IMG/VR virus record: IMGVR_UViG_3300012209_000002
Span: 1 to 61,018 of that record
Source of the DNA: a virus
Taxonomy: Duplodnaviria; Caudoviricetes
Length of the DNA stretch: 61,018 nucleotides
Direction: 5' to 3' (one strand)
Positions 1 through 59,192 of the stretch are shown here, piece by piece. Each line of letters begins with the position of its first letter. Position 1 is the first letter of the stretch. Under the pieces are notes generated by a model, which worked only from the letters and a program-made list of their open reading frames with translations, ran no database searches and was not told the DNA's origin. Position numbers and translations under genes: made by a program.

Positions 1-123
1 ATCGCCAGCCCCTACGGCTGCACCTGGGAAGAGTTGCGCAACGATCTCAAGCTGATGTGGCGTGAAACCACCCGCGCGTCCAACTGGCTCATGACCGAAC
101 TCTACACGCGCGATTGCCGGCGC
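1..123. repeat. Terminal overlap (identical to 60896-61018); circular assembly
   Basis: First 123 nt ATCGCCAGCC...GCCGGCGC are identical to the last 123 nt, and an ORF reads through the junction. Confidence 0.97.
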
Positions 124-1035
124 GCGGGCGAGGAGAAGATGCCCCCGATGCAGCCCATCGACTTCTATACGGAGCTGAAGCGTTTCCCGGCATTGCCCCC
201 GCAGACCCGCGTGTCGCTGGCTCAAAGCTGCACCAAGAAATACAAAGCATTGCGTCGGGACGTGATCTGGACCTGTGCCAAGAGCCTGCCTAGTTTCCGT
301 TACCCCGTCCCTTTCCCCGTTCACAATCAGAGTTGGAGCGTGCGCATCGAAAAGGGACGGGCAATTCTCCGGGTGCGTATCGGCGAGGGCTGGCGCGAAC
401 TCCGTCTCAAGAGCGGCCCGCAATTCCGGCGACAGTACCGCTCCGTGCAACTGATAGCGAGAGGCGAGGCGATTACCGGCGAGGCAGCCATTTACCAGCG
501 TCAGTTCGAGGGGAAGTCCGCGCTCATGGTCAAGATGGTGGCTTGGTTGCCGCGTACTCCAGTCACGGGACTCAAGCCGGATTCGGTGTTACCGGTCTAC
601 ACACGGAAAGACGCGCTCCTGCAAGCGGTCAACACCGAGGACGAAGTACTGTGGACCTACAATGCGGATCACTTGCGGAGGTGGAGCGAGGAACATCGCA
701 AGACTCTTCAGAGATTGGCGGACGACAACAAATTCGAGGCCCGGCCAGTTCCGAGCTTCACGGATCGCCGTACCGCCCTGGTGCGGAAGTATCGCGACCG
801 CATGGACTCGGCCACGCACGAGATCGCCGCGCAACTTGCCTCGTACGCCGCCCGCCGCAAGTTCGCCGTAATGCGCTACGATGACACGGAGCGGGGGTTC
901 TGCGAGAGCCTGCCGTGGTACCGTTTAAAGCTACTGATCGAGCAAAAGTGCGAGGCGCTGGGGATACGATTTGAAGCAGCAGGCCCAAAAGAGTCGGAAA
1001 CGAAAGAATCGGAAGCGAGAGAAAACCAGCAGTGA
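1..1035 (+). CDS. 3' part of nuclease-dead TnpB/Cas12f-like RNA-guided DNA-binding protein (full gene 60680->junction->1035, 416 aa)
   Basis: C-terminal region follows the TnpB/Cas12f pattern: LVRKYRDRMDSATHEIAAQLASYAARRKFAVMRYDD (bridge helix/RuvC-II) and LPWYRLKLLIEQKCEALGIRF. The RuvC-I GxDxG is replaced by PVYTRKD, and the protein ends before the C-terminal Zn finger/RuvC-III. Confidence 0.75.
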   Translation: MASPYGCTWEELRNDLKLMWRETTRASNWLMTELYTRDCRRAGEEKMPPMQPIDFYTELKRFPALPPQTRVSLAQSCTKKYKALRRDVIWTCAKSLPSFRYPVPFPVHNQSWSVRIEKGRAILRVRIGEGWRELRLKSGPQFRRQYRSVQLIARGEAITGEAAIYQRQFEGKSALMVKMVAWLPRTPVTGLKPDSVLPVYTRKDALLQAVNTEDEVLWTYNADHLRRWSEEHRKTLQRLADDNKFEARPVPSFTDRRTALVRKYRDRMDSATHEIAAQLASYAARRKFAVMRYDDTERGFCESLPWYRLKLLIEQKCEALGIRFEAAGPKESETKESEARENQQ

Positions 1036-1083
1036 CGTGGATTGAAATCGTTGGCATCGTTTACCGCGATATACTGTTTTCGA

Positions 1084-1304
1084 AGGTCACCGAGGTTAGC
1101 AGACCTAGGGGCAGAAACGCTGAGAACGCTTGCCGACTCAGTATGTGATTGCCCAAATACCGTAAAGTGTTTCGGGATATCTCAGCAGTGTAAAAGCGAG
1201 CGGTCCTGGAAAACGGCGAAAGTCCAGAAGGCTTGAGACCTGCCGTTTCGGTGAAGCGAGAGGCCCGGCGGAAGAGAAAGAGCCGAAACCGCTCGCAAGA
1301 TCGG
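1084..1304 (+). ncRNA. Putative guide scaffold RNA copy 1
   Basis: Hairpin AGGTC/GACCT with loop ACCGA..; stem CTGAG/CTCAG enclosing invariant loop AACGCTTGCCGA (1125-1136); GGGATA; GCGAGCGGT (1196-1204) pairs with ACCGCTCGC (1288-1296). Confidence 0.65.
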
Positions 1305-1334
1305 AAAACAATGAGAAAGAATAGCTTTGAGATT

Positions 1335-1479
1335 ACTGTCCTACCGTACAGGACAGTTCCGACGACGCCGGGAACGCTTGCCGACCCGGTCGCTCGGATA
1401 GATGCTGGTAAGTCTTGGGATATGTGCGGCTTGCCGCGCCAGCCCTGAGAGCGAGCGAAAGCGAAAACGCTCGCTACGG
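1335..1479 (+). ncRNA. Putative guide scaffold RNA copy 2 with fused first repeat
   Basis: Hairpin ACTGTCCT/AGGACAGT with loop ACCGTAC; stem CCGGG/CCCGG enclosing AACGCTTGCCGA (1373-1384); GCTGG/CCAGC; GGGATA; anti-repeat GAGCGAGCG (1449-1457) pairing with CGCTCGC-TACGG (1468-1479). Confidence 0.75.
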
Positions 1480-1650
1480 GCCAAGAAATGGTCTTTCCGC
1501 CATCCACGCCAACGGACTGAGAGCGAGCGCAAACGAAAACGCCCGCTGCGGGTACCTGGCGAAAGCGTAAAACGCGCGTCGGATCGGCAGGAAGATCGCT
1601 ACGGGGTGCCAGCATTGGCCGCTCGCCGCGGGATGGAGAATTGAATTTAC
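1468..1650 (+). CRISPR. Non-canonical mini-repeat/guide array cognate to scaffold 2 (consensus CGCTCGCTACGG)
   Basis: Repeats at 1468 CGCTCGCTACGG, 1540 CGCCCGCTGCGG, 1593 AGATCGCTACGG and 1620 CGCTCGCCGCGG, separated by largely unique sequence. Confidence 0.5.
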
Positions 1651-1804
1651 AGCCCACCGATTAGGGCTAGGCTAGACATACGCTGGAAACGCTTGCCGAT
1701 TCAGTAGCTCTGGCGAAGGCTGGTCCCACTCCTCGGGTTAGTTCTCGTTGAGTGGGCGTAAACACTCCAGATACCTCTTGAAGGGAGCAGCCTGGGGAGC
1801 GACC
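1651..1804 (+). ncRNA. Putative guide scaffold RNA copy 3
   Basis: Hairpin AGCCC/GGGCT with loop ACCGATTA; GCTAGA/TCTGGC; stem CTGGA/TTCAG enclosing AACGCTTGCCGA (1688-1699); GGCTG/CAGCC; anti-repeat GAGCGACC (1797-1804). Confidence 0.75.
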
Positions 1805-1859
1805 TTTGACATTCCAGAGGCAGTTGCGGGGCACATCGCGGCTTGCGGCAACCTTGGCC

Positions 1860-2041
1860 GATCGCATCGGGACCGTCTCTATTTTCGAATCCCGGGAATG
1901 TCGCATCGGTTCAGGTCGCGTCGGGAGCCGCTTCGAGGCGCCGGTGCTATCCAACGCCAATCTATCTTTTCCCCGTCTCTTACTCCATACTTGCGGTTTT
2001 AGATCGTTAGGGTCGTTTCGGTCGGTTACGGGTCGCGTCGG
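1860..2041 (+). repeat. Cluster of GGTCGCNTCGG mini-repeats downstream of scaffold 3
   Basis: Copies at 1860, 1899, 1914, 2011 and 2031 (another at 2278), all on the + strand, irregular spacing. Confidence 0.65.
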
Positions 2042-2055
2042 GAGAGGTTGCCATC

Positions 2056-2277
2056 GTGTCGGTCAATGCGGATCTCTTGTGTCTATTCACCGAGTTGCGC
2101 CAGGAGATCCGCGATTCCAACCTCGAACGCCGGGAATCGGAGAGGGCCTTGGATCTTCGGTTGCGGCGGCTGGAAATTGCGCTAGTGCGGCATCGGGTGC
2201 GGGCGCGGATGTTAACAGCGGCGTGCGGGGCGGGAGCCAGCGCGGCCACGCACCTATTCGCGAAATATTACCATTAG
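2056..2277 (+). CDS. Small hypothetical protein, possibly lysis-associated
   Basis: 73 aa, GTG start after GGAGAGG; coiled N-terminus and weakly hydrophobic C-terminus. Confidence 0.55.
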   Translation: MSVNADLLCLFTELRQEIRDSNLERRESERALDLRLRRLEIALVRHRVRARMLTAACGAGASAATHLFAKYYH

Positions 2278-2327
2278 GGTCGCGTCGGGTAAGGTCACTC
2301 TGCGGAGTCGCCGAGGAGCATCTGAAG

Positions 2328-2588
2328 ATGAACATCGTGAATTCGGCAAAAGGCGAACTGGTGCAAACGGTTCTGCGCAAGATTGTCGACGGCAATACCG
2401 GCAGCACTCTGTTAGGCGGTGTGGCCGTGGCAATTCTGGCCTCGGGCGCCAGCTTTCCCGATTTGTTTTCGACGGATCAAAGTAAACTCGCGCATGCCTG
2501 GGGGCTGGCGATCGGCGGGGCGATTCTGGGCGTCTGGGGCTGGAAGATCGGCCGCAAGCCCGTCGCTCCCGCGCCGCCCGCTGTGTAG
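2328..2588 (+). CDS. Holin-like membrane protein
   Basis: 86 aa from ATG after GAGGAG; two hydrophobic helices (TLLGGVAVAILASGA, WGLAIGGAILGVWGW) and a basic C-terminus. Confidence 0.55.
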   Translation: MNIVNSAKGELVQTVLRKIVDGNTGSTLLGGVAVAILASGASFPDLFSTDQSKLAHAWGLAIGGAILGVWGWKIGRKPVAPAPPAV

Positions 2589-2870
2589 GTCGCTTCGGGG
2601 TGCGTCTGTCGCCTCGACATCGTCCTGATTTGCAGGTTGCTTCGTGCAAGGGCCGATTGGACGCAAAACTACTGTGATTTGGGCCGCTTCGGAATAAGCG
2701 TGCAGGTAACGTCGCTTCAGGATAATCCTCGCGTGGATTGCCGGTCGCCTCGGAGTATGCTGCCCGCCCCCGGTCGCTTCGGTGCTTTGATCGGCTTGGG
2801 TAGTCGCCTCGGGAACGAGGAATACGGGCCGCGCAGGTCGCTTTGTCTTAATGTACCGGCCATTGGACCG
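2588..2870 (+). CRISPR. Non-canonical array of nine 11-nt repeats (GGTCGCYTCGG) with mostly 17-23 nt spacers
   Basis: Repeats start at 2588, 2607, 2635, 2682, 2710, 2743, 2772, 2802 and 2836; spacers are 8, 17, 36, 17, 22, 18, 19 and 23 nt; intergenic between convergent genes. Confidence 0.65.
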
Positions 2871-2877
2871 ATAGCGG

Positions 2878-5202
2878 CTATTGAGCGGCGGCCTGCTTCG
2901 GTTCCGGTTGCTGCGATTTTGCCTCTTGTGCCACCCGCGCGGTTAGTGCCGTTGCTGCGGCGGTCCATGCTGGCGTGCGTACGGGCAGTGTCATAGCTTG
3001 AGTCAACAGTTTTGCTCCACCGGGGCTGAATAAGATCCGCGATCCCAACCAAGGCAAGCCGACGGCCCCGGTTATCTCCAATGCCGCTTGTCCCAATGCC
3101 GCTTGCTTAAACCCTCCGGTAATTGCCGTCACCAAAGCGTGCGCAACCGTTCCGTAAGCGCCTAATGCGTACCAACTGGAAGAAGTACCCGAAGGATTCA
3201 TAATCCGGCTGACCCGCTTGGATGCCAGCATGAACTTATCCAAATCCCCGGTGAGCTGCTTGCCGAACAACAGCTCCTTGGTTTCCGGCCCCAGTCTGTT
3301 CCAGTCGGCCGCAATCCCGGCGCTCCGTCCGAATCCGCCTTCTTTCGTGGATTTATCGATCAGCCCTTCCAGAAACGTGCGTCCGGTGGTTTTCAGTTCG
3401 TTTGGAGCGATCTTTCGCAACTCCCGCAAGGTATTCAACGAACGGTCGCCGCCTTGCACCAAGTTGTAGTAAAATTTCGCGGGCTCCTCGCTCATATCCT
3501 GAAACAGCTCATCCACGTTATGATAGGCACGCACCAATCGTCGGCCGGCTTGCAATTTGCCGAGAACGTCCGATCCCGCCCCCTGCACCGCTCGTTGGAA
3601 TTCGGTTTCTCCTTGCGCGATCGTCATCTTGGCGAGACGCTGCGATTGTGTGGAAAGATAAGGGCTGTCGCCATCGCGCGCCAGTGCTTTCACCGCGCTC
3701 AAGGTCCGGTCGAAATCCATGGCATTCATGAATTTCTTGTCCGAAGTCATCAATTCTTCGAGACTGCGCCATGCTGGGGAATTGGCCCGCCGCGCATCCG
3801 GCAAAGCCCGCTTCAGATCGTCGTAAACCGGCGCTAATCCTTGACGAATGGGCGCGAGATCGACGGGAGTTTCCAGAACGCTGTAAACGGGCACCTGGCG
3901 CGGCATTCCAGCGGGTGTCAGCGTGGCCAACGGGTTCGCTCCGGGCACCGTTTTCGTTCCGGTCTGCACGGTTTGTCGGTTAACCGCTGTCGATTGCCGC
4001 ACCTCGTTGTAGAGTCGATCGGCTTTCCCTTTTAACTGCGCGGTCAGACGAATTCGTCGCTGAATCAACGCCTGTCCCGCGCCGTAAGGATCGGTGACTT
4101 GTCCTCCTGCCCGCGCCGCCAGTTGCTTTTCTTTGCCGGCTAACGCTTCTTCGGTCGCCATACGGGCCTTACTGGCGCGGATGCCCGAGCCCGGCAGACT
4201 TTCCATAGTCTGCTCCACCCGCTTCAATCCGGGATGGCCCGTCCGCTGTCCAATGCTCAATGGCACGTCTTTCTCGATGGACTGAACGGCGGCTTCTTCC
4301 ACCGGGTTATAGACATTGCGCACGGCCGGTTCCAAACGGATTCCTTTGGGCAGCAATTTGGCCGCAGACGGCGCCAGCAATTCGAGCGTATGGGCCGCGC
4401 CCGCACCGTAGCGTCCTGCGCGAAAGTCTTCTCCGGCCTGTACCGCACCTGGACCGGCTATCGGCAAATACGATGCAGCGCGATATCCCAAACCGGCAAT
4501 CCCCGGCTCTTTCTTAGACTTCTCGTACATTTCCCGCTGCTGCCCGTACATCGCACGGCCGGCTTGAATCGGATTCTTCGCTGCCTCTCCGATCGCAGCC
4601 GGCAGATTGGAAATGTCCCCCCAGAGCGTACCCCAAAATCCTTTTGGCTGCATCGCTGTGTTTTGCAAGCCCAATTGCACGGCATTGGCTTTTTCCTTAA
4701 GGGGCAATGCTTTAAATGCCGGATCGTAGGCATCCAGCACCTTGATCTTTTCGATTCCAGGCAATTGCCGGAAGTTCGGGTCGGCGAAGATCTTACTCAA
4801 CTCGTCGGCCCCGCTTGACTGTTCGCCAGTTCTTTGCGTTTGATCCACGATTAGTTTGCCCGATTTGTCTACCAGCCGGTCGCCTTCCCAATGCGGCGCT
4901 TCCTCGGTCGCATACCGGGATTCTTTGGAAAAGTATCTGTGATACGGCGTTTTGTAGGTATCGGGGAAGTGTGCGCTGCCACCGCTCTTAACTCGCGTCT
5001 CCCGTTCCGCCATAGCTTTTGTGTCCCGAAAGAATCCGCGCATGTCGTAGTTAGAGGTCGGCGATTCGGTCCATGGGATCTTATTACTCTGCACCCAGAT
5101 TTGGAATTTCTTCTCTTCATCCGGCGGTAGTTTGGTGAGGTACGGTCCGGGTTTGGCAAAAGGAGACGGCGAAGTAAGTTGCTCGCTCAGTTCGTCAGCC
5201 AC
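2878..5202 (-). CDS. Putative virion ejection/internal (DNA transfer) protein
   Basis: 774 aa, A/G/Q-rich helical protein at the distal end of the virion operon, as in podoviruses. Confidence 0.55.
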   Translation of the reverse strand: MADELSEQLTSPSPFAKPGPYLTKLPPDEEKKFQIWVQSNKIPWTESPTSNYDMRGFFRDTKAMAERETRVKSGGSAHFPDTYKTPYHRYFSKESRYATEEAPHWEGDRLVDKSGKLIVDQTQRTGEQSSGADELSKIFADPNFRQLPGIEKIKVLDAYDPAFKALPLKEKANAVQLGLQNTAMQPKGFWGTLWGDISNLPAAIGEAAKNPIQAGRAMYGQQREMYEKSKKEPGIAGLGYRAASYLPIAGPGAVQAGEDFRAGRYGAGAAHTLELLAPSAAKLLPKGIRLEPAVRNVYNPVEEAAVQSIEKDVPLSIGQRTGHPGLKRVEQTMESLPGSGIRASKARMATEEALAGKEKQLAARAGGQVTDPYGAGQALIQRRIRLTAQLKGKADRLYNEVRQSTAVNRQTVQTGTKTVPGANPLATLTPAGMPRQVPVYSVLETPVDLAPIRQGLAPVYDDLKRALPDARRANSPAWRSLEELMTSDKKFMNAMDFDRTLSAVKALARDGDSPYLSTQSQRLAKMTIAQGETEFQRAVQGAGSDVLGKLQAGRRLVRAYHNVDELFQDMSEEPAKFYYNLVQGGDRSLNTLRELRKIAPNELKTTGRTFLEGLIDKSTKEGGFGRSAGIAADWNRLGPETKELLFGKQLTGDLDKFMLASKRVSRIMNPSGTSSSWYALGAYGTVAHALVTAITGGFKQAALGQAALEITGAVGLPWLGSRILFSPGGAKLLTQAMTLPVRTPAWTAAATALTARVAQEAKSQQPEPKQAAAQ

Positions 5203-5205
5203 GGT

Positions 5206-6957
5206 TTATTTTCCGATTCCACGCAGACGCAGGTACTCATCGGCGGTTTTGGGAGGTGGTCCCGGAGCACCCGTAGGTCCGCTCGGCCCAGATGGTCCTG
5301 TAGGTCCGCCCGGCCTTGGCCCCGCACCTTGCCCTGTATCTTGCGCCGGTCCCCCAATCTCCACCCCGCCTTCCGTCATCGCCGGACTGTTTCTGATCGA
5401 GTTCAGCCGGTATCCTAGGTTCTTGCGCGTCAAGTTCACCGCGGCCCGCAGCGTCTTGTCGTCCCAATCGCCGCTTAGAATCTTCATGGCCTGCCCGAGA
5501 CTTTTATCGGTAGGAGTGTTTCCTCCCTGATAGACTGTGGCGAGTTCGGATTGCAGATCGGTGATTTGGATATCGAGAAGCCGCGCTGCTTCCGCCGCCG
5601 GTTGCCCGAAAATTCCGCTTTTCGCCGTGTTCAATGCCAGTTTGTTGATAATCGGAAACTTGGTGCGCGGAACGGCATTGCGTAAATCTCCGAGCAAATC
5701 CTTACCCGGTTGTTGAGAATTGTCGATCAGGTCCAGACTTTCCACGGTGAAATCGACGGCTTGCCGCAATCGCACCTGCGTCGGTCCGTTCAAAGTCCGT
5801 ATCCAGATAGTTGTAGCCATCCAGTCTTTCTGGGCTTTGGCGAGATTGTATCCTTCCCTAGCCAGTTCGGCGGTCACGCGTCCCGCCATTCCTGTACGAC
5901 CCAACCCTGTCAGCATGGGCGACAGCAACCCATTTTTAATCCCTTGTGCGATGCTGGGCGCATCTTTCTCTGTCTGTTGCAAGTTGATGATGGACGCGGG
6001 CAGACGGTCGGCCTTGGTAATGGATTCCTGTCGCGCTTTGGCGTATGCCTCTGCAAACGGCATTCCTTTGGCCATGAATGCGTCGGTGCGAAATCTGGTA
6101 ATTGTAGCCATCTGATCGGATGCGTAATATTGGCGCGCCTGTTCTCCTTGTTCTGGAGTCAGCGGTAATTTCAATCCTGCCTTTTGTGCGTAAGCCTGAT
6201 GTAATTCCTCATCCTTCAGTTTGGCTTCGGACGGTACAGCGGGTTTATCGGTGCGAGTCCAGTTTTCCGGCGGTCGGAACGTTTTGCCCGCCATGCGATA
6301 CACATCGGGAGGATCGGTGGATAACTTGTCCAAAATTACGACGGTGCCATCCGGCTTGAGAAAATGCGCTTCCTTCTCGGAACCGGTTTTGGCCTCGACA
6401 TTGTACAGCTTGGCAATGCCGGTATCGTACTGATCCTTGGTAATTTGTCCGGTGCGTAGCGCCTCATCCAGCCGGTCCCGTCCCGTTTCGATTCCCATTT
6501 GCTGGGCAACGAACAAATCTTCGTCCGCCTGCCGCTGTACGATGCTTTTCTTTTGCGCTTCCCGTTGGGCTGTCTGCTGCGCGATTTCGTCGCGTTTGAC
6601 TCGTACCTGTTCCGGAGTAAGGCTGGCTCCCGCGGGCATGGGCGGCACCGCCGGTCCCTTCCCCACCGGGTCCAGTTGCCCTAGCCCCTTTCCCATGGCC
6701 TTTCCCGCGCCTGCCAATGTTCCCAACATGCCGAACAGCTTCCCCGAGTGCTGCTTCATCTGTGGGGGGCCTTCTTTCTGAAACAGCTTTTCGTAGTTCT
6801 GCAGCGCCCAGGCTTTGAGCACGGAAGGATCTTGACCGGCGGACAGCAATTCTTCGTCGGGCGCGGTGAACAGGTGTGTATACATCGCCGACTGGTTCAT
6901 CACGTCGCGTTGCTTGGACTCCTGATGCGTCCGAATCAGATTGGTGATGACACCCAT
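5206..6957 (-). CDS. Putative ejection/internal virion protein with collagen-like C-terminal GXX tract
   Basis: 583 aa; GPTGPSGPSGPTGAPGPPP near the C-terminus; operon position. Confidence 0.55.
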   Translation of the reverse strand: MGVITNLIRTHQESKQRDVMNQSAMYTHLFTAPDEELLSAGQDPSVLKAWALQNYEKLFQKEGPPQMKQHSGKLFGMLGTLAGAGKAMGKGLGQLDPVGKGPAVPPMPAGASLTPEQVRVKRDEIAQQTAQREAQKKSIVQRQADEDLFVAQQMGIETGRDRLDEALRTGQITKDQYDTGIAKLYNVEAKTGSEKEAHFLKPDGTVVILDKLSTDPPDVYRMAGKTFRPPENWTRTDKPAVPSEAKLKDEELHQAYAQKAGLKLPLTPEQGEQARQYYASDQMATITRFRTDAFMAKGMPFAEAYAKARQESITKADRLPASIINLQQTEKDAPSIAQGIKNGLLSPMLTGLGRTGMAGRVTAELAREGYNLAKAQKDWMATTIWIRTLNGPTQVRLRQAVDFTVESLDLIDNSQQPGKDLLGDLRNAVPRTKFPIINKLALNTAKSGIFGQPAAEAARLLDIQITDLQSELATVYQGGNTPTDKSLGQAMKILSGDWDDKTLRAAVNLTRKNLGYRLNSIRNSPAMTEGGVEIGGPAQDTGQGAGPRPGGPTGPSGPSGPTGAPGPPPKTADEYLRLRGIGK

Positions 6958-6966
6958 GGAACGCTC

Positions 6967-7164
6967 CTAATAGCGCTTGGCGGCTTGCCGTTTGCGGCGG
7001 CCGCTGCTCATATCGTAGGTGTCCCGGTATGCCTCGCCCAGCGGGTCTTCCGATGCCGGTTCCTGCCGCTTCTTGCCGAGTTTGTCCGCGATGCTGATGG
7101 CATCTCCAATGGCACCGCTGTCTTTTGCCTTTCCCATCGTTGCAATATCTCTCAGCGCACCCAT
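6967..7164 (-). CDS. Small hypothetical protein
   Basis: 65 aa MGALRDIATMGK..., RBS AAGGGAG, tightly packed in the operon. Confidence 0.55.
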   Translation of the reverse strand: MGALRDIATMGKAKDSGAIGDAISIADKLGKKRQEPASEDPLGEAYRDTYDMSSGRRKRQAAKRY

Positions 7165-7175
7165 AGTTGTCTCCC

Positions 7176-7916: not shown

Positions 7917-7959
7917 CGGACTCCTATCGGGGGAATTCCGATTTTATCCCGTTTTAGCC

Positions 7960-8475: not shown

Positions 8476-8484
8476 TTTCAGATT

Positions 8485-10350: not shown

Positions 10351-10353
10351 GGT

Positions 10354-10722
10354 CTATGCCTCGACCAGGAGCATCTCGACGATGACTGCGGCTGTGTGCG
10401 CCTTGGCGTTGGGAGCAGTGCATCCCAACCGGCCCATGAAGAACTCGCCAGGTTGCAGCCGAATGAATGGCACCGCGTCGGTGGAAACAGCGAAAAAGTC
10501 ACAGTAATTCGTGGCGTCGGTGTTGACAACAAAGAACCAGCCCAATGTGCCCACACCGCCCAGATTTACCACCGTCATCGTGGTAGCAATGCTCTGAGTG
10601 CTCTCCGAGAACGCACTCCCCGCTACCGTGAACTTCTTCTGGTTCTGCGGCGGCGCGTTGATCGGCCCAATGCCGCCCTTCAAAAAACTCATTGCTGCCG
10701 ATACTGTGAGTTCTGAGGCCAT
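10354..10722 (-). CDS. Hypothetical (putative structural) protein
   Basis: 122 aa, RBS AAGGA, operon context. Confidence 0.55.
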   Translation of the reverse strand: MASELTVSAAMSFLKGGIGPINAPPQNQKKFTVAGSAFSESTQSIATTMTVVNLGGVGTLGWFFVVNTDATNYCDFFAVSTDAVPFIRLQPGEFFMGRLGCTAPNAKAHTAAVIVEMLLVEA

Positions 10723-10757
10723 TTCAATCCTTCCGGGGGGAAGGGTTATTGTAACCG

Positions 10758-10964
10758 CTAGCCGGTAGCCGTATGGTTTCGCTTTTTAGCCTGCGCCGCC
10801 GCTTTCCGGATTCGCGCCTGGATCGCGAGAGGCCGGCAGTTTGGACAATACTTGCGCTGCCGGTGATACGTGTGAAATTCCTCGCCGCAACGAACGCAGA
10901 ATCTGGTTAGAATCTCGCCAAAAGCATCGTTCGGCGCTTCGTTGAGGAAAGAACTGCCGATCAT
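10758..10964 (-). CDS. Small zinc-ribbon protein
   Basis: CVRC...YCPNC; start overlaps the upstream stop (ATGA). Confidence 0.55.
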   Translation of the reverse strand: MIGSSFLNEAPNDAFGEILTRFCVRCGEEFHTYHRQRKYCPNCRPLAIQARIRKAAAQAKKRNHTATG

Positions 10965-12445
10965 CCCGGCCCACCGATATCCCCGGCCTGACAATCCCCA
11001 ATCGCAATGGAACACGTCACTTGAGCAATCGTGCTGGCCCCATCCACCGCGCGCACGACGAAAGTCCACGATCCATTGGCAATCGGCGTCCCCGCTATCG
11101 TGCCACTCATACTCAGGGTCAGGTTCGGCGGCAGGCTTCCCGACACCAGGCTCACTACGTAGGGTGCCGTGCCCCCGGTAATCGTCAGGGTGTGGGAATA
11201 GGCTGCGCCCACTGTGCCAGCCTGGGGATTGTTGCAGGAGATCGCCAGCGGAATTGCCGCCACTAACAGGTAGACTGACAACGAGGCATACTTTGCTCCC
11301 GGTGTAATGCCGGTGAACAACTGCGGATCGACCGTGCCCTGAATCGCCGCCCACGATGCCGAAGAGACCGCCACCGGGTACGGTGTCAATGCGTCTACGC
11401 CAAGGGTAGTGGTATAGGCCAGCGTAGGAGCAGACCATGCCCCGCACGCCGTCGAGGTCGCGTAGTACAAAAACCCCTGGTCGGTGGCATCGTAGTTCAG
11501 CGGCTTGGATACCACGTAGAAACAGTAAAGAGTGCCGCCCACATCCACCAAACTCGCGTCGTACCAGTCCAGCAGCGTGAAGGGAGAAAGCACGTAATCG
11601 GCGGGCAGGCCGGTTTCGGAAATCACCAACCGATCGGCAAGCGCAAGCGATCCGGAATCGGCGCCGGAACCGCAGATTACATGCAGCTCATCGTGTCCGC
11701 TAATCGTCATTTTGATGGCAAGAGCGACATTGCCGCCCGAGGCCGCGCCGGTTTCCACTTCCGCGAGAAACGGCGGGGCGGTAAAATTGTAGACCGTCTG
11801 CCATGTACCGGGAGTTAGAGTTGTGGCATCGATAGTGAGGCAACCTATTCTGGCTAATGCTGTAAGTACGCCCGTGACGAATAGATAAACCCGGTTGGCG
11901 TCCCAGGTTACCGATTTTAGTTTTGTGCCTGTATAAGGCGAAGCGCTCAGCGAAACCGGCGCATCCCATGTCACGCCATTGAACCGGGACACACTCGCGA
12001 GCGTAAGCAGGAGCGGCGTGCCGTCCGCCAGAATCGCCAGTCCTGCAGGATTGCTGGTAATGGCGCTGGCCGGATAACCGGTGGTAAATGTATCGGCCGC
12101 GGCGGTGTCGAGCGAGTAGATCGCCGTGCCGGGAGTGTGACCGCCGGTGCTGCTGAGATTTACCGTAATCCAGATTTTGGCGCCGGCCAGGGCAGCGGCC
12201 AGCACTTCGTAGCTGAGATATGTTGGCGGCGCGTAGTTCACGATGCGCGTCCAGGTTACCCCGCCGTCCGCCGATTTGAGAATCCAGAGATTGAACGTGG
12301 ATTCGGTAAGCGCATTGGCCCCCACTTCCGCGCCGGTCACATAGTAATAGCTCCCGTTTGGCGCATGAAACAGCAACCGGTTCTGAAGCGGCGTGCTCGG
12401 CTCCATGTACTGCGTGGGCGTGACCGGATGGACGGCGATAGGCAT
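10961..12445 (-). CDS. Putative tail/receptor-binding protein: Asp-box beta-propeller plus C-terminal Ig-like (He_PIG-type) domain
   Basis: KSADGGVTW Asp-box; GTVGAAYSHTLTITGGTAPY..SGSLPPNLTLS..GTIAGTP. Confidence 0.7.
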   Translation of the reverse strand: MPIAVHPVTPTQYMEPSTPLQNRLLFHAPNGSYYYVTGAEVGANALTESTFNLWILKSADGGVTWTRIVNYAPPTYLSYEVLAAALAGAKIWITVNLSSTGGHTPGTAIYSLDTAAADTFTTGYPASAITSNPAGLAILADGTPLLLTLASVSRFNGVTWDAPVSLSASPYTGTKLKSVTWDANRVYLFVTGVLTALARIGCLTIDATTLTPGTWQTVYNFTAPPFLAEVETGAASGGNVALAIKMTISGHDELHVICGSGADSGSLALADRLVISETGLPADYVLSPFTLLDWYDASLVDVGGTLYCFYVVSKPLNYDATDQGFLYYATSTACGAWSAPTLAYTTTLGVDALTPYPVAVSSASWAAIQGTVDPQLFTGITPGAKYASLSVYLLVAAIPLAISCNNPQAGTVGAAYSHTLTITGGTAPYVVSLVSGSLPPNLTLSMSGTIAGTPIANGSWTFVVRAVDGASTIAQVTCSIAIGDCQAGDIGGPG

Positions 12446-12448
12446 GAG

Positions 12449-12757
12449 CTAGGCTTCCTGCCGGACGAGGATCATCAGTCCGCGGGAGCGCGTCAGCCCC
12501 AATTCGTGCAGACCGAAGAGGGTGGCGGTTTGACGCACAAAGGTGGCGGCCATGTAGCGCTGCCAGAAATCCTCGGGCGCGGTAGGCAGGAGATCCTCTT
12601 GCTTCATTTCCTGAACTCGCACCACGATTGCGTCTTTCATGGCGTCCACGGATGGCGCGGAGATATTCAGGTCGAGACAGGTGTATGTGCCCGCGCGATC
12701 GAGCAGCAGATGCGCGACCTTCCACTTCCAGAGCGTGCGGTCGGGGAGCAGGCCCAA
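12449..12757 (-). CDS. Hypothetical protein (start uncertain)
   Basis: 102-aa ORF with a TTG start, ending 3 nt before the next start. Confidence 0.45.
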   Translation of the reverse strand: MGLLPDRTLWKWKVAHLLLDRAGTYTCLDLNISAPSVDAMKDAIVVRVQEMKQEDLLPTAPEDFWQRYMAATFVRQTATLFGLHELGLTRSRGLMILVRQEA

Positions 12758-13045
12758 GGCTCCTTCGAGTGCAGTAGACGGGGGTTCGGGCGTCAGTGGA
12801 AATCTCCAGCAAGCACGATTTCAGCGAAATCCCATTATATCTAAGGCTTGCAAAGAAAGACGATCGGGGCGTCGACGGCTTTTCCACGGGGTTTTCCACT
12901 GCTTCGATCCACGACGTAAATTGCGACAACAGCTCCGTGCGGTACACCCACACAGCCGATTGAAATGTGTCGCACTGCCGGGCTTTGCTCCACGCCTTGT
13001 CCGCAATATAAGCAAGCCGAAGAACCAGTCGCTCGCGCTCCGGGG

Positions 13046-16000
13046 TCAAATTCGCGCCCCGCGCTCGAAGTGCAGGTCGCCGTGGACGCGCACGATCTGG
13101 CACCCTTCGCTTGTGCCCCACTCCTTGACCGCCATAGCACAATCTTTTTGGAAGACTCGAAAGGGTTTACAGGCCAACAGCGTGTACTGAGACAACTTCG
13201 CTTTCATCGGCTGGAGCACTTCATAAGGCTTCCTGATTTCACCGCCCGTGGACGGAATGAGATAGGTGTACACGCGTCCGTCGTCCTGTGTCACGATCAG
13301 CTTCACGTCGGAGTAAGACTGCAAGGTCACGAAGCAATCCCGGTGCGAGTGATAGCCCCGAAATCCGTGCGAGGTCGTCTGCGTGATCCAGTATTTGGCA
13401 AGGTCCGGGTGCGGCTCCCAGATCCACTTGATGCGCCATGGGCCGATATAGCGCAGAGGGCCATCCGGGATTATGCGCACCTGATGCGCTACGAAGGGAA
13501 CCGGGAAAGAGTAGGCAAGCTGGAGATTGCCGGCGTGGTTGACTTTTGTGAAAACCCCGCCAACCTGTCCGCCGTCGTATTGCACGGTAAGAGTGCGGTC
13601 TTGCCCGAGAGTATCAGCCCATAGCACAAATCCTTGGAAGAATTTAGCCGCTTGCACTCCATCGTCGGTCCACTCCGAATACAAGGCGGCGAGGTCCGGA
13701 CGCGCATCGCCAATCCAACGCACTTTCCAATCGGCGTGCTGGCGCCACGGAGGATTGGGGAATCCTGGCTGATCGAGTGGAACCAGTTTGACTTCGGTAG
13801 AAGTGAATGCCTCGGCAAAGGAATACGCCTTTTGAACTCTACCGTTATGATTGCAGGTTAGCCGCCGAACCTCAATCCCCTCCGAAATCACCTGCACCGC
13901 AACATCTTGCCCGCCCGTGTCCGCCTCGATGGCCACGCCGCGATAGGCGATGGGGTCGGTGGGCGAGTAGTCGGGAACGAAAGAGGTTAACTCCGGTTGC
14001 AGGGTCCAGAACCACTTCACCGAGTAGAGCTGCCATGCCGATTCGTCGCGCGGGCTGATGCGCATGTGGTGCGTGATCAGGGGGTCCACAAAGTAATAGG
14101 GTTTGGTCTGCTGCCCGTCGTGCTGAATGCTCAGAGTGGCGATGAGCAAATCGCCGTCGCCCAGGATTTCCACCGTGCGCGGTACATTGTACGTGTCGGC
14201 TTCGATCAGACACCCGTACAGATATTTGTTCTGCGCGGTGCCTTCGTCCTCCCAGTCGGTTGCCCGCTTCACCGTGATCTCGGGTTTGGGCACCCAAGAG
14301 GGCTCCCATTCATAAAACAGCGAGGGCAATCCCCCGGAGACATTTTCCGTCCACGCGAAATCGAGCGCGAAGCTGGACGCGGGCCGGCCCAAACCGTCGG
14401 TCAGATCGAGCACCTGCTGTTTGCGTCCCGATCCGGCGCCGCTGCCAATGCCGTTAATGAGAATCGAGCCGATCGCGGCATCCATCTCCGGGGAGAAGCG
14501 CGGCGTCACCCCGATATCCACGCGCGGATCGAGATCGAGGTACGCGTCTCCCCAGATCTTCTGTGCACGCGGATCGCCCGCGTCGAACGCCGCCGTGACC
14601 AACCGGCAGGAGATGGGATTGCCGGCATCGCCCACCGTATATTTGTTGTAGTTGTAGACGATATTGCCCTGGGAGAACTTCAGATTGGATGCGGCGACTT
14701 CGTAGGCACGGCCCAGAGGGCGATTGCTGACGCCGTTGTACACATCGAACGCGATCCAACCGTTAGGCTCCTGCCGGCCTTCGTACACCAGGGTCGAATA
14801 ATGGCCCGTCGTTGCTGCCGGGTAGTCGTAAAACAGCACGCCTTCAAACCAGCACAAGTTGTGATATTGCGTGAAATTGGAGTAAGGACCTTGTTCGGTT
14901 CCGGTAATCGGCGGTCCGCAAACCGTGTCCTCGCCGGTCAGCCACGGATACAGCAGGCTCAACACCACGGGATTCTGGTTGTCATGGCTGAAAAACGGGT
15001 AGAGCGTGGCGTCGGTGAGCGACCGTAGACCGGCCCCCGAATAGTCGTAGATGCCGTCCTTGCTTCTCCAGGTCATGGACTGGTCCGAGATGCCGTTGGA
15101 GTGGACCGAGTGCGCGTAAGGCATCGCGAGGCCCTTGCCGCCGGGGATCTCTTCCACCAGGAATTGCCCCGCGACCGCCAGGCTCGGATACACGCGAAAC
15201 ATACGCTCCGTGCTCCACAGATACGGCGTGCCGTCGTAAATCGCCCCGCCCATTAGCGGCTCCGAAGGCGCGGTCACGATCACCGAATTGGCGGTGTCGG
15301 CGGAATCTGGATCGTTGCCGTTGGTCCAGTAGAGTGTGCCCGCGGTCAGATCGTTGCCGAGCCCGAAAATGTACGATCCACTCTGCCCGGTGCCGTAAAG
15401 CCCGAAGATGCAGCGCATGGGGGCACCCGCGGTCAACACGCCTAACCCGGTATCCCAATCGACAATATCCCCGCTGGCCATCCCCACGTTCGCCAAATTC
15501 TCGGTCAACTCGATGACCGCTCCCGCTCGCCCCGCTTGTCGCACCTGGTAAAGCGTGGTGTACGCCGTGGGATGCACCTTGAAAAACGAGCCCGGTGTCC
15601 AGCCGACATTGAACTCGTCGCCCGATTGCCAGACAATAATCCACACCCCGTTGGGAAGCTGTTCGATGATGCCGGTGCCCTTGCGCGGAATGTCGAGCAC
15701 GGGAAAAGGCTGAAATAAGTTGAACCGCGAGATGCCCGTGTCTGGATCGGTTACGGCGGGCGGTCCCGGCGCCGACAAGAGCGCGGAATCCGGCGTGGTA
15801 TCGACCATATTGCTGCCGGCCGGGGCGCTGCCCACGAATACCCAGCGCGGCAGCACGTCCGAGAAGCGATACACGTCCACCACGATATTGGTGTCCGGCA
15901 AGCCGGTCTGCGGATCGATGGGCGCGGGGGGCAGGTCAATGGAAGCGCTGGCATTATTGATGAAAATTGCAGGCGTGGCCCAGGTCGTGCGCGTGGCCGG

Positions 16001-16627
16001 CGAAGGATTCGAGCGTGCCCCGGTGTAGTACCGGCGATAGGCGAATCGCCATTGATAATTGCCGTTCAGCAGGCCGGGATCGCTACCGATCGCCGGCACG
16101 GTCAAGGAGGGTGGCGCAGGCAGCCCCATCGTAAACGCATGGGCCATTTGCGTGTCCGGATCGTCGAACGGGTAGTAGCCCACTGTCAGCAGAGTTTCGT
16201 GGTCGCCGATGTACTTCCAGCCCGGCGAACCCGAACGCGGCGCCGCGTCCACCATCGTCAGGGGTTTCCCCGAGAGCAAACCAGTCGTGGCACCGAACAG
16301 CGGCAGTTTGAGCGGGTTGAGCGCTGTGTTTTGCAAGTGCGCCTCGTCCACACCCATGTAGATCGAATCGTCCGCGCCTACCAAGTACGTGTGGGTGAGG
16401 TTGAGAGCTGGCGAAAAATTATTCAATCTTGAAATTGAATGAACCCAGGTCTTGCCGGGAATGGTGGCGAAGTGCTCCAAGCCGGATCGCGCGCCGACTA
16501 CGCCCTGCCGGGGACTGCGAATGTTGCGGCCGAACAAGATTTGGCCGTCGGGCAGGGTGTCCAGCGAGCGGTTGAAATTCATCCCGCCATTCGCAAAATT
16601 CATACGTTTGCGTGAGAAGGCAGCCAC
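13046..16627 (-). CDS. Large tail/head-closure (nozzle, tail tubular B-like) protein
   Basis: 1193 aa, beta-rich; N-terminal FANGGMN..D.LP...GRNI start typical of nozzle/stabilisation proteins; follows an adaptor-like gene. Confidence 0.6.
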   Translation of the reverse strand: MAAFSRKRMNFANGGMNFNRSLDTLPDGQILFGRNIRSPRQGVVGARSGLEHFATIPGKTWVHSISRLNNFSPALNLTHTYLVGADDSIYMGVDEAHLQNTALNPLKLPLFGATTGLLSGKPLTMVDAAPRSGSPGWKYIGDHETLLTVGYYPFDDPDTQMAHAFTMGLPAPPSLTVPAIGSDPGLLNGNYQWRFAYRRYYTGARSNPSPATRTTWATPAIFINNASASIDLPPAPIDPQTGLPDTNIVVDVYRFSDVLPRWVFVGSAPAGSNMVDTTPDSALLSAPGPPAVTDPDTGISRFNLFQPFPVLDIPRKGTGIIEQLPNGVWIIVWQSGDEFNVGWTPGSFFKVHPTAYTTLYQVRQAGRAGAVIELTENLANVGMASGDIVDWDTGLGVLTAGAPMRCIFGLYGTGQSGSYIFGLGNDLTAGTLYWTNGNDPDSADTANSVIVTAPSEPLMGGAIYDGTPYLWSTERMFRVYPSLAVAGQFLVEEIPGGKGLAMPYAHSVHSNGISDQSMTWRSKDGIYDYSGAGLRSLTDATLYPFFSHDNQNPVVLSLLYPWLTGEDTVCGPPITGTEQGPYSNFTQYHNLCWFEGVLFYDYPAATTGHYSTLVYEGRQEPNGWIAFDVYNGVSNRPLGRAYEVAASNLKFSQGNIVYNYNKYTVGDAGNPISCRLVTAAFDAGDPRAQKIWGDAYLDLDPRVDIGVTPRFSPEMDAAIGSILINGIGSGAGSGRKQQVLDLTDGLGRPASSFALDFAWTENVSGGLPSLFYEWEPSWVPKPEITVKRATDWEDEGTAQNKYLYGCLIEADTYNVPRTVEILGDGDLLIATLSIQHDGQQTKPYYFVDPLITHHMRISPRDESAWQLYSVKWFWTLQPELTSFVPDYSPTDPIAYRGVAIEADTGGQDVAVQVISEGIEVRRLTCNHNGRVQKAYSFAEAFTSTEVKLVPLDQPGFPNPPWRQHADWKVRWIGDARPDLAALYSEWTDDGVQAAKFFQGFVLWADTLGQDRTLTVQYDGGQVGGVFTKVNHAGNLQLAYSFPVPFVAHQVRIIPDGPLRYIGPWRIKWIWEPHPDLAKYWITQTTSHGFRGYHSHRDCFVTLQSYSDVKLIVTQDDGRVYTYLIPSTGGEIRKPYEVLQPMKAKLSQYTLLACKPFRVFQKDCAMAVKEWGTSEGCQIVRVHGDLHFERGARI

Positions 16628-16652
16628 TTATAACTCCTGGACGGGCGTCGCG

Positions 16653-16668
16653 AGTTTCACGTGAAACA
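16653..16668. promoter_or_regulatory. parS centromere-like site
   Basis: AGTTTCACGTGAAACA is 15/16 identical to the chromosomal parS palindrome TGTTTCACGTGAAACA; intergenic. Confidence 0.75.
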
Positions 16669-16671
16669 CTA

Positions 16672-16700
16672 TTGCGCACCACCTCTGAGTCTGATATAGT
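16672..16700 (+). promoter_or_regulatory. Sigma70-type promoter of the RAMP/Cas7-like gene
   Basis: TTGCGC (16672-77), 17 nt spacer, TATAGT (16695-700); followed by a 5' UTR hairpin and a GGAGGT RBS. Confidence 0.75.
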
Positions 16701-16768
16701 GCGGTGGTCCCCGTGCGGTTCAAGACACACGAGGACCAGCATCCTAGCCTTCTGGGAGGTAGGCCAAG

Positions 16769-17401
16769 ATGCCCAAAACAAAAGGTATCACAATACCACT
16801 GACCATTCTGGCTCCGGTTTCTAACGATGCCCAAGGCATCATCTCTTATGAACATCCGTACACTATTTCGGTAACGATTACCGGAGTTGCACCATTTCTG
16901 TTTCATCGCTGGAACATTGAAGTGGTGGAAGAAAAGAACAAAGCTGCCAGAGGAAGCCGAGCCCGCAAGGAAAACGATCTGGAAAGTTTCGTTCATCGCG
17001 ACGTAAAAGGGAATTTGGCAATACCTACCGAGTATTTGCGTCAAGCAATTATCGGCGCTGCCCGATACAAATCAGATCCACGAAGCCCCAAGAAAACCAT
17101 GATGGATCTAGTCAAGGCCGGAATCGTGGCCGCCGAAGAGTTTTGTAACTTTGGCGTTAAGGATTGGGACTACGTGGACCGGCGAAGAGTTTTGATCCAA
17201 AGAAACGCGATTACCAGGAGCAGGCCGGCAATGCACATCGGTTGGACGGTGACTGCTCTTTTCACCGTGATTACCGCTGAATACATTAGCCCAACCATGT
17301 TCAACGAGTTGATTCAGACAGCCGGAAAACTGATCGGCATCGGAAATTTCAGGCCAAGTTTCGGAAGATTTCAGGTTACGGTTTTCAAACTGTTAACCTA
17401 A
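16769..17401 (+). CDS. Standalone RAMP/Cas7-like protein (Vipr-like)
   Basis: 210 aa; N-terminal strand VTITGVAPFLFH, LAIPTEYLRQAI helix, and C-terminal G-rich loop AGKLIGIGNFRPSFGRFQV; no other cas genes adjacent; inverted relative to the surrounding operon. Confidence 0.8.
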   Translation: MPKTKGITIPLTILAPVSNDAQGIISYEHPYTISVTITGVAPFLFHRWNIEVVEEKNKAARGSRARKENDLESFVHRDVKGNLAIPTEYLRQAIIGAARYKSDPRSPKKTMMDLVKAGIVAAEEFCNFGVKDWDYVDRRRVLIQRNAITRSRPAMHIGWTVTALFTVITAEYISPTMFNELIQTAGKLIGIGNFRPSFGRFQVTVFKLLT

Positions 17402-17408
17402 CAAATGT

Positions 17409-17545
17409 GGCTCGCTATGGCTGCACAAGCTAAGGCTTGTCCATACTCGTCGCGACACTGCGGGGCAATGGCAGTGGCATGGTTTGGCCGCACACGGCAC
17501 GCTTCGGCAAAGGCAGTGACATGGTGTAGCGTGGCACGTCATGGA
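17409..17545 (+). ncRNA. 5-nt periodic GGY-NN tandem array (VIPR-like guide RNA), three units
   Basis: ggc TC gct AT ggc TG cac AA gct AA ggc TT gtc CA tac TC gtc GC gac AC tgc GG ggc | aatggcagt | ggc AT ggt TT ggc CG cac AC ggc AC gct TC ggc | aaaggcagt | gac AT ggt GT agc GT ggc AC gtc AT gga. Confidence 0.8.
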
Positions 17546-17583
17546 AACCCGGAAGCGTTCGATTGTCGGACGCTTTCCGGGTT
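17546..17583. terminator. Strong hairpin closing the array, between convergent transcription units
   Basis: AACCCGGAAGCGTTCGA-TTG-TCGGACGCTTTCCGGGTT. Confidence 0.7.
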
Positions 17584-17586
17584 CAA

Positions 17587-59110: not shown

Positions 59111-59114
59111 GATC

Positions 59115-59192
59115 GGTCGCGTTGGTGTATCGAGCCGTGGACGGAGCAGAAGTCGCGTCGGAAAGTTCTCGGATGGAATTTGGTTGCGTCGG
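59115..59192 (+). repeat. Mini-repeats upstream of scaffold 4
   Basis: GGTCGCGTTGG at 59115, AGTCGCGTCGG at 59151, GGTTGCGTCGG at 59182. Confidence 0.55.

Follow-up and report, generated by a model that had tools for sequence, protein, structure and literature searches.

Two Unrelated Nuclease-Free RNA-Guided Modules, a dCas12f-Like Cassette and a Minimal VIPR Locus, Predicted in One 61-kb Tailed Phage

Introduction

Why would a phage of 61 kb carry two RNA-guided systems of unrelated origin, neither of which appears to include a nuclease? This question is raised by IMG/VR record IMGVR_UViG_3300012209_000002, a soil virus of the Caudoviricetes (Duplodnaviria), whose complete sequence of 61,018 nt was analysed here and is called the window throughout. 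The first module, cassette 1, extends from about 59.1 kb across the contig junction to 2.9 kb and combines the gene of a predicted nuclease-dead Cas12f-like (dCas12f-like) protein with scaffold RNAs and CRISPR arrays. The second, cassette 2, is a predicted VIPR locus at 16769-17583, with one protein of the RAMP type and a candidate pentamer-repeat RNA. Both had been pointed out in an earlier note on this DNA that was made from the sequence alone. We give a probability of roughly 0.6 to the reading that the two cassettes form non-cleaving RNA-guided silencing complexes, by which the phage would probably repress the genes of competing mobile elements while leaving the DNA uncut.

A Cas12f-Like Effector With a Predicted Inactive RuvC Site

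The open reading frame (ORF) of the effector crosses the contig junction. Its 5' part (60680-61018, + strand) encodes residues 1-113 with a CxxC...CxxC zinc ribbon, and its 3' part (1-1035, + strand) encodes residues 73-416 and the stop codon, with bases 1-123 duplicating 60896-61018 as a terminal repeat. Read from 60680 to 61018 and on from 124 to 1035, the gene yields the 416-aa protein P0003. Its N-terminal ribbon is an extra element, for which the match to Zinc_ribbon_6 was weak (E=2.8e-4). Searches of P0003 against Pfam, NCBIfam and, as a single sequence, PDB gave no informative match, and tblastn against isolate phages gave no match. Relatives were nevertheless numerous, with 292 found in a word-indexed search. 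In an exhaustive profile search built from 35 members, representatives numbered 1219 at E<=1e-3, of which 986 remained at 1e-10 and 670, as clusters at 50% identity, at 1e-30. The length of the family members is nearly always 390-440 aa, and most are encoded by phages or prophages that belong to soil Acidobacteriota.

Comparing the family profile with PDB, the matches were OsCas12f (3.6e-8), another Cas12f1 (4.2e-5), the nuclease-deactivated Cas12f 9n9c (2.5e-3) and AsCas12f-type chains (0.006-0.016). PADLOC models for Cas12f (1.6e-6) and Cas12u3 (1.7e-5) also matched P0003. An AlphaFold (AF2) model of the protein reached a predicted local distance difference test score (pLDDT) of 89.9, and Foldseek placed it closest to AsCas12f (8j12_A, E=4.3e-18), OsCas12f (1.3e-16) and the dead Cas12f 9n9c_A (1.4e-15), followed by TnpB (7.6e-10), Cas12k (5e-9) and Cas12m2 (6e-7). 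In the hidden Markov model alignment to OsCas12f, the Asp column of the GVDMG motif never holds D or E (35/35 members); R, Y, H, N, S, V, A or T is found instead. The Glu column of the MED motif holds D, N or E across the family. We take these motifs to be the RuvC-I and RuvC-II catalytic motifs. P0003 ends about 15 residues past the last matched Cas12f position, leaving about 64 residues of OsCas12f and 54 of the 399 PADLOC model positions unmatched, and this truncation holds across the family. The missing tail would presumably comprise the zinc finger and RuvC-III. The intact D-E-D RuvC triad and the C-terminal zinc-finger TNB domain of active type V-F effectors were thus not found in P0003. 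Judged from the profiles and the predicted structure, P0003 is a Cas12f-fold effector with a putatively inactivated RuvC site.

Two further stretches of the protein, NGDHLRRW and DxKxE (P0003 residues ~292-300 and 314-318; alignment A1), are invariant or nearly so and belong to an inserted helical segment that separates the strands of RuvC-I and RuvC-II. A function in RNA processing or partner binding is conceivable. Around the gene, no ORF family was common to more than 3 of 32 loci, and the small flanking ORFs showed no Pfam match, including none to sigma or helix-turn-helix (HTH) families. Cassette 1 is a gene with its RNAs and has no fixed protein partner. Two adjacent small ORFs of the cassette (59499-59921 and 59902-60183, + strand) share the ending HVFDAE-stop because some 21 nt are repeated there; a cysteine-rich motif is present in the second, and neither matches Pfam. 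Relatives of P0003 are also encoded on two IMG/VR contigs of jumbo-phage size, L016 (229 kb), with two scaffold copies and no regular array, and L025 (214 kb), with no scaffold match.

Scaffold RNAs of Cassette 1

Four scaffold copies resembling a trans-activating CRISPR RNA (tracrRNA) were found in the window, all on the + strand, using a covariance model (R1; 122 positions, built from 18 copies with a hand-set structure). Copy D precedes the effector gene by about 1.3 kb (59233-59382; 61.6 bits, E=2.3e-11), and copy A directly downstream of it (1078-1202; 63.0 bits, E=1.1e-11). These are joined by copy B, the best match (1326-1447; 92.4 bits, E=4.8e-18), and copy C (1640-1764; 61.8 bits, E=2e-11). 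In the window, as in many relatives, a 10-nt core, ACGCTTGCCG, is located 50-90 nt past the stop codon. Single-sequence folds agree on a common plan, in which hairpin P1 is followed by a long-range helix P2 enclosing hairpin P3, with the core as the P3 loop, then by a small hairpin and by helix P4 enclosing hairpin P5. The minimum-energy fold of copy B shows P1, P2(P3) and P4(P5).

Searching with R1, 34 matches at E<=0.01 were obtained in 29 of 32 sources, every one on the strand of the effector gene; L005, L025 and L117 gave no match at this threshold. In the scaffold alignment 85.9% of cells were paired compared to 65.9% in shuffles, and two-sided changes occurred at 23 of 24 pairs. The covariation score of 0.509 was reached by 0 of 500 shuffles (0.18). 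We were aware of the fact that a model-fitted alignment favours structure; the low scores with slid partners (0.04-0.15) argue that the covariation signal is real. Hand-setting the structure and the use of a covariance model were needed because MAFFT and RNAalifold alone recovered just 9 pairs. The four window copies keep P2 with different base pairs, and P2 of copy D was read by eye as compensatory relative to copies A-C. Elsewhere two copies per locus were found only in L004 and L016. Rfam and tRNA scans of the window revealed no known RNA.

At the 3' end of the gene, a conserved EPLAEE-like C-terminal peptide is encoded by CCGCTCGC, both in the window (about 1000-1035) and in relatives. As CCGCTCGC appears again in the scaffold, just past hairpin P3, the conservation of EPLAEE may be at the RNA level, which would be comparable to the omega RNAs overlapping tnpB.

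Repeat-Spacer Arrays of Cassette 1

Full repeats and truncated ones are found on the + strand behind the scaffolds. Unit B (1445-1607) is a mini CRISPR array of repeat 1445-1480, spacer 1481-1516, repeat 1517-1552, spacer ~1553-1590 and a truncated end at ~1591-1607. A repeat search found its two full copies to be 36 nt long and 89% alike, with 72-nt spacing and a 36-nt spacer. Unit C (1791-2288) consists of a repeat-like element (~1791-1831) and truncated ends at 1860, 1900, 1915, 2012, 2032 and 2279, separated by spacers of 5-240 nt; interleaved with them are two small ORFs (2056-2277 and 2328-2588) that have no Pfam match. An array of about nine truncated repeat ends of the GTCGCNTCGG type follows at 2589-2850, with spacers of ~10-70 nt, and stops where the convergent structural operon ends. 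In total, cassette 1 contains about 20 such ends, each of 10-12 nt and with short spacers. The exact GTCGCNTCGG occurs 10 times, on the + strand only and confined to 59152-61018/1-2812, compared to a chance expectation of 1.36; none of 100 shuffles gave more than 4. When it is set against the final 12 nt of the full repeat, 10 of 12 positions are identical, and the units of this type are probably truncated repeats which retain the guide-proximal handle. Tandem Repeats Finder, for which these arrays are not long or not regular enough, detected none in the window.

The relatives carry more regular forms. In 16 of the 23 viral loci having at least 200 nt downstream, a regular array was found straight after the scaffold, with partly palindromic repeats of 36-39 nt, varied spacers of 30-41 nt and up to 14 repeats. 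Strings of 9-12-nt repeats with short irregular spacing were observed in L001, L004 and L009, where the commonest 9-mer has 14, 19 and 14 copies, respectively. In L003 and L009 full repeats come first and are followed by short ones identical to the 3' end of the full repeat. In the window, too, the truncated repeats correspond to the 3' end of the full repeat at their own locus. A CRISPR array and a putative tracrRNA adjoining the effector, as known from active type V-F loci, are therefore present in sequence.

A Minimal VIPR Locus Within the Structural Operon

VIPR, for Viral Interference Programmable Repeat, was described in 2026 (10.64898/2026.04.26.720920). The Vipr RAMP polymerises on a vrRNA of 9-16 YNNGG units with a conserved tail, DNA is read via the NN dinucleotides with one base skipped, and rival phages, satellites and prophage regulators are silenced. 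Loci typically consist of vipr and vap and fall into seven types, and a vrRNA is defined by at least 4 pentamer units, with internal degeneracy allowed (10.64898/2026.04.26.720920).

The vipr gene of the window (16769-17401, + strand) encodes a 210-aa RAMP and forms an island of lower G+C (0.54) inside the - strand structural operon. A profile of 32 relatives (A2) matched Vipr of phage SUSP1 in PDB (36pp_D, E=1e-11, positions 31-201), and the ORF matched phrog_4652 (6.2e-18). The predicted structure (pLDDT 73.5) was placed by Foldseek closest to a type VII Cas7 (2e-5) and Csm3 (1.4e-4). A C-terminal G-rich motif is invariant in the alignment. The protein corresponds to a minimal RAMP homologous to known Vipr, a type characterised by an RRM core, a G-rich loop and a thumb. 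Vipr relatives numbered 680, and in IMG/VR 350 of 365 candidate stretches encode one.

The candidate vrRNA array directly downstream (17406-17545, + strand) shows 5-nt periodicity. Its first part (17406-17470) consists of 13 consecutive in-frame 5-mers, all pyrimidine-first and only some retaining GG, and later tracts (17473-17507, 17520-17544) are offset by 1-nt phase shifts. Among the 43 GG pairs of 17406-17545, 17 are spaced by a multiple of 5 nt, a value reached by 19 of 2000 shuffles. In the relatives, at least 6/8 in-phase GG were found within 450 nt downstream at 69 of 80 loci versus 1 of 62 background segments; these arrays are of a clear GGY/NN type, in the same position and hairpin-ended. 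A hairpin read by eye (17546-17583, + strand), which was not called by the terminator scan, closes the array of the window back to back with the stop codon of the adaptor gene on the other strand. No vap gene was found; the island (16628-17586) holds vipr and the array only, and in 80 related loci of the clade no conserved neighbour was detected. On homology, predicted fold and array position, 16769-17583 is a putative new member of the VIPR systems, with a minimal and degenerate locus.

Protospacers of a Relative of Cassette 1

The metagenome-assembled genome (MAG) G330 contains a locus, L110, whose protein is 51% identical to P0003. Spacers 3 and 4 of its 6 spacers match 36/36 in integrated elements elsewhere in the same MAG. 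One protospacer lies inside the gene of a 127-aa HTH_31/XRE-type regulator, with a PD-(D/E)XK nuclease, a primase and a fragment of an integrase as neighbours. A 214-aa ORF contains the other; this ORF is flanked by an excisionase-like HTH_17 gene and an integrase, in a region that also holds a replication initiator and a DnaB helicase. The 5' flanks in spacer orientation are TTT and TTC (TTY, n=2), and fit the T-rich 5' protospacer adjacent motif (PAM) usual for Cas12. These matches are the best evidence that the dCas12f-like family may aim at resident mobile elements. A second copy of the L110 array region, 91% identical, is found at the start of another contig (G330:C11:1-598; L132, L133) and may represent a strain variant or a second prophage. 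In another relative, L002, a 53-nt stretch of the array (5404-5456), longer than one spacer, matches two of 301 Bryobacterales genomes with 81-85% identity (E=1.2e-8 and 2.3e-5).

Two Independent Accessory Cassettes

Presence and absence of the two modules was surveyed in related genomes. A distant Vipr is co-present in 2 of 25 dCas12f-bearing viral records, and in 2 of 10 among those at least 90% complete. One close relative by large terminase (TerL; 71% identity, 58.6 kb, 97% complete) contains neither module. Because co-occurrence is rare and both are missing from the closest TerL relative, the modules are independent accessory cassettes that happen to be stacked in this phage.

Much of what the earlier note had described was borne out. 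Its dead class-2-like RuvC effector with multi-scaffold arrays corresponds to the Cas12f fold, the replaced RuvC-I Asp, the missing C-terminus and the four scaffolds, and its class-1-like RAMP with a pentamer array to the SUSP1 Vipr match and the Cas7/Csm3 fold, the 5-nt periodicity being weaker than in relatives. The modules are indeed unrelated, one belonging to the Cas12f/TnpB lineage and the other to the RAMP lineage, and by homology both fall into RNA-guided DNA-binding families without nuclease, in agreement with the statement that no recognisable active nuclease is attached. The adaptation genes said to be lacking (Cas1, Cas2 and Cas4) were not detected among the 59 ORFs scanned with PADLOC. 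Both modules also reach into positions 1 to 17,583, the span to which they had been assigned; this span has to be corrected, as 2878-16627 holds ordinary tail and structural genes that are part of neither system and a portion of cassette 1 lies outside it (59.1-61.0 kb).

Phage Genome, Host and Contig Integrity

The record is classified by IMG/VR as a virus of 61,018 bases with direct terminal repeats and 100% completeness, and matches of the window ORFs to PHROG and Pfam indicate a tailed phage. They comprise a SU10-type adaptor (17587-18900), a major head protein (26594-27736), a large terminase (37093-39522), which is unusually long (809 aa), a primase/helicase (48387-49877), RecT (55250-56299) and an endolysin (56734-57216). 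Three HNH homing-endonuclease-like ORFs on the - strand (23653-24450, 27761-28255, 36494-37027) are spread among the head and packaging genes, and two of them are paralogues, both matching phrog_5046. Amid the tail genes, 7960-10012 (- strand) encodes, besides an HD phosphohydrolase, a dual-specificity/tyrosine phosphatase and a protein with a malectin domain; in the ORF list these last two overlap, and their starts need re-calling. A 32-nt element with ribosome-binding site and start codon is present in 3 copies about 238 nt apart (57841-58347, + strand), which suggests three tandem small paralogous genes instead of the long ORF 58192-59337. A DinG/XPD-type helicase (50855-52474, + strand; Pfam Helicase_C_2) matches the type IV-A CRISPR-associated DinG of PADLOC over its C-terminal half (E=8.1e-42). 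It sits in the replication block about 8 kb from cassette 1 and may perhaps be just a replication or repair helicase.

The nearest isolate phages by TerL are Tunturiibacter phages, with only 32% identity. The host is probably a Bryobacterales-like acidobacterium, because the relatives of the junction protein are mostly encoded on contigs of Acidobacteriota (8 of 10 genome contigs; Paludibaculum, Bryobacterales, Solibacteraceae). One of the 10 contigs, L108, is the same phage binned in an actinomycete MAG labelled Rugosimonospora, which probably reflects mis-binning. This second, independent assembly (a 61,037-bp k141 contig) contains the junction gene uninterrupted, with 100% identity over residues 1-416. 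In sequencing runs X1 and X2, which may be source samples and hence not independent, one Logan contig of 60,787 bases covers 946-18500 and 1-836 with 2 differing letters. From other studies, runs X3 and X5 provided pieces of at least 99% identity in 44 of 48 and 46 of 51 records, respectively. The long Logan contig breaks at 807-975, where short alternative contigs of X1 and X2 show several substitutions in the part of the dCas12f-like gene that covers RuvC-II, apparently through micro-heterogeneity among strains.

Comparison With Known Systems

Both kinds of system are already in print. For cassette 2 the closest example is VIPR of Escherichia phage SUSP1 (type II; 10.64898/2026.04.26.720920, 10.64898/2026.04.26.720927), which likewise has a single phage RAMP without nuclease and adaptation genes and a pentamer-periodic non-coding tract directly downstream with a structured 3' element. 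The window differs by the absence of vap, by one array only and by a degenerate GG motif with 1-nt phase shifts.

For cassette 1, C-terminally truncated dead Cas12f proteins have been reported, mostly with sigmaE, and a separate dCas12f cluster adjoining CRISPR arrays is mentioned and proposed to repress (PMC13472631). P0003 shares with dCas12f-sigmaE (PMC13472631) the Cas12f fold, seen in the match to 9n9c_A, and a C-terminal truncation removing part of the RuvC site. It differs by its weak sequence similarity to 9n9c and by lacking a sigmaE or HTH partner; an operonic rpoE with C-terminal extension, often accompanied by an HTH gene, was not found at the locus (Pfam; 32 loci). Further differences of the cassette are its location on phages and prophages of Acidobacteriota, the N-terminal zinc ribbon, the several scaffolds and the truncated-repeat arrays.

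TldR, the TnpB-like nuclease-dead repressors, likewise belong to the TnpB/Cas12 lineage; they are found in phages, some being encoded by prophages, and repress in an RNA-guided manner. Their guides are short, with a single omega-RNA-like guide and a fixed target gene of the host adjoining the locus, and they are not known to have a CRISPR array. The arrays at the P0003 locus, the lack of a conserved adjoining gene (32 loci) and a fold nearer to Cas12f (4e-18) than to TnpB (7.6e-10) ruled out membership in this group. Cas12m (V-M) and Cas12k (V-K) are found on mobile elements as type V effectors that only bind and do not cut, and Cas12m blocks transcription of rival plasmids (PMC11656645). Compared to these, P0003 shows a weaker fold match, has no transposition genes and is inactivated by truncation instead of point changes. 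The delocalised crRNA of V-K has a truncated repeat. A CRISPR-associated transposon (V-K, CasMu-V) was rejected, as no transposase is among the PHROG and Pfam matches of the window and no neighbour is conserved. Phage mini-arrays and solitary repeat units are also short, phage-borne and free of adaptation cas genes, and are aimed at related viruses (PMC11656645); the window phage differs in bringing its own dead effector and tracr-like scaffold and not relying on host Cas proteins. TldR, Cas12m, Cas12k and the mini-arrays are functional analogues from different families. By keyword search of the open-access literature no description of the phage dCas12f family was found, although the extended data of PMC13472631 or of the VIPR preprint may list it or the Vipr clade. 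A dCas12f variant of this kind, phage-borne and equipped with many scaffolds and with truncated repeats, seems not to have been described before.

Discussion

The mechanism proposed here builds on homology, folds, loss of catalytic parts, conserved RNA structure, array anatomy, accessory status and the protospacers of one relative; from them we infer, for the window phage, that the cassettes are expressed, load RNA, bind DNA without cleaving it and repress, and what their class of targets is. Each cassette would make an RNA-guided complex that binds DNA and leaves it uncut. Cassette 1 would be a reduced type V (Cas12f-derived) CRISPR locus, in which each scaffold runs straight into repeat-spacer units, most of them apparently reduced to the guide-proximal 10-12 nt of the repeat and a short spacer. 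Its protein would load scaffold and crRNA, recognise a T-rich 5' PAM and form an R-loop that blocks transcription or replication of the target. In cassette 2, a VIPR system without vap, a polymer of Vipr protomers would form along the vrRNA with its pentamer repeats, DNA would be read with the published one-base-skip code, and the target would be silenced. The targets of both would most likely be resident prophages, satellites and other mobile elements of the acidobacterial host.

Several observations weigh against this reading. The RuvC-II position is still acidic in most members of the effector family. The truncated repeats are only putative working guides, and some directly precede small ORFs, where they may instead serve as signals at the DNA or mRNA level. 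The spacers of the window had no match in its own phage genome. Compared with 301 Bryobacterales genomes, they gave matches at E<=0.01 in 11, which is chance level, and the best two of these overlap the repeat or fall in unrelated genes. Exact searches of two spacers in IMG/VR and two in metagenome contigs found none. The host MAGs of four relatives also yielded no convincing target for the window spacers, and G169 contains just a weak match to repeat 2, with no array and no scaffold there. Using about 90 spacers of relatives against 0.9 Mb of collected sequence, just duplicates and a 16-nt chance match were obtained. The protospacers come from one relative only, and the array of L114 had no match in its own MAG. 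For VIPR, a target search with the 1-nt skip over 0.8 Mb was no better than shuffled controls. The best run of the window array is 5/8 in-phase GG, without four perfect YNNGG in a run, and at least 5/8 was also reached by 5 of 62 background segments, compared to 7-8 in most relatives. Consensus promoter and terminator scans of the window were at or below chance, and because the promoter scans were at chance, the -10-like boxes read by hand upstream of each scaffold and of vipr are to be taken as an impression.

Concerning the use of the systems, programmable DNA binding against competitors, as proposed by the earlier note, is backed indirectly, by published VIPR (10.64898/2026.04.26.720920) and by the L110 spacer matches, but no target was found for the phage's own guides. 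Nothing was found that speaks for host takeover, the other use it had proposed.

The scarcity of full repeats, just two in the window, the lack of targets and a pentamer array below the level of most relatives would suit decaying relics. Since its array is degenerate, the VIPR system of the window may indeed be weakened. Nevertheless, both ORFs are intact and keep all family-invariant residues, the four scaffold copies keep their helices by compensatory changes, and the truncated repeats are strongly over-represented and strand-specific and recur as arrays in L001, L004 and L009. We therefore regard it as rather unlikely that one or both cassettes are relics without present function.

The short guides could also be seen as a sponge. 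An anti-CRISPR decoy, whose dead effector, scaffold and repeat fragments imitate a type V system of the host and sequester its crRNA, tracrRNA or Cas12f, would go well with truncated repeats so numerous and spacers so short, and with a decoy the lack of targets would be no surprise; mimicry by a phage dead Cas9 and solitary repeat units have been proposed in print (PMC10910872, PMC11656645). A decoy has no need, however, for the long regular arrays with varied spacers of 33-41 nt that relatives retain, and two L110 spacers have perfect protospacers with a consistent 5' flank. Moreover, no host array with the repeat of the window was found in the 301 genomes, and the weak match in G169 has neither array nor scaffold. 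We consider a decoy function of cassette 1 unlikely.

Activation instead of silencing was weighed as well, as the closest characterised dead Cas12f works in this way (PMC13472631) and P0003 shares its C-terminal truncation. Cassette 1 would then recruit a sigma factor or RNA polymerase and drive phage or target genes. The adjoining sigma or HTH gene expected from dCas12f-sigmaE is lacking (Pfam), no neighbour is conserved in the 32 loci, no guide matches the phage's own genome, and the L110 protospacers lie inside coding regions and not upstream of genes, all of which makes activation quite improbable.

A chimeric contig that joins modules of different genomes, a danger named by the earlier note, was checked by matching contigs from the sequencing runs and the second assembly, and with no sign of it found, the long contig in X1 and X2 (not independent runs), the pieces from other studies, the intact junction gene and the direct terminal repeats all against it, and an actinomycete bin label that points to mis-binning instead as the only oddity, it has next to no likelihood.

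Silencing without cleavage thus remains our preferred reading. Going further, we put forward only tentatively, and with some doubt, that cassette 1 belongs to an undescribed large branch of phage-borne dead Cas12f with a new array grammar. Paralogous scaffolds would each lead a transcript, on which full repeats are succeeded by 10-12-nt repeat ends with 10-30-nt spacers that would supply dozens of short guides without adaptation; together with VIPR a two-layer silencing arsenal against resident prophages and satellites would result. Some of the truncated repeats that directly precede small phage ORFs might, in addition, link the processing of guides to the expression of these genes.

Conclusion

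The analysis exposes a very large, seemingly uncharacterised family of dead Cas12f-like effectors, which comprises 670 clusters, has a protein length of ~400 aa and is accompanied by a well-defined scaffold RNA. With one of the L110 protospacers in the gene of an XRE-type regulator and the other adjoining genes for integrase and excisionase, targeting by phage dead effectors becomes directly testable. Should the truncated-repeat units be real guides, the range of CRISPR array forms known so far would be extended, and a compact natural module for multiplex CRISPR interference would be available. By homology, a phage of 61 kb stacks two evolutionarily unrelated, nuclease-free RNA-guided DNA binders.

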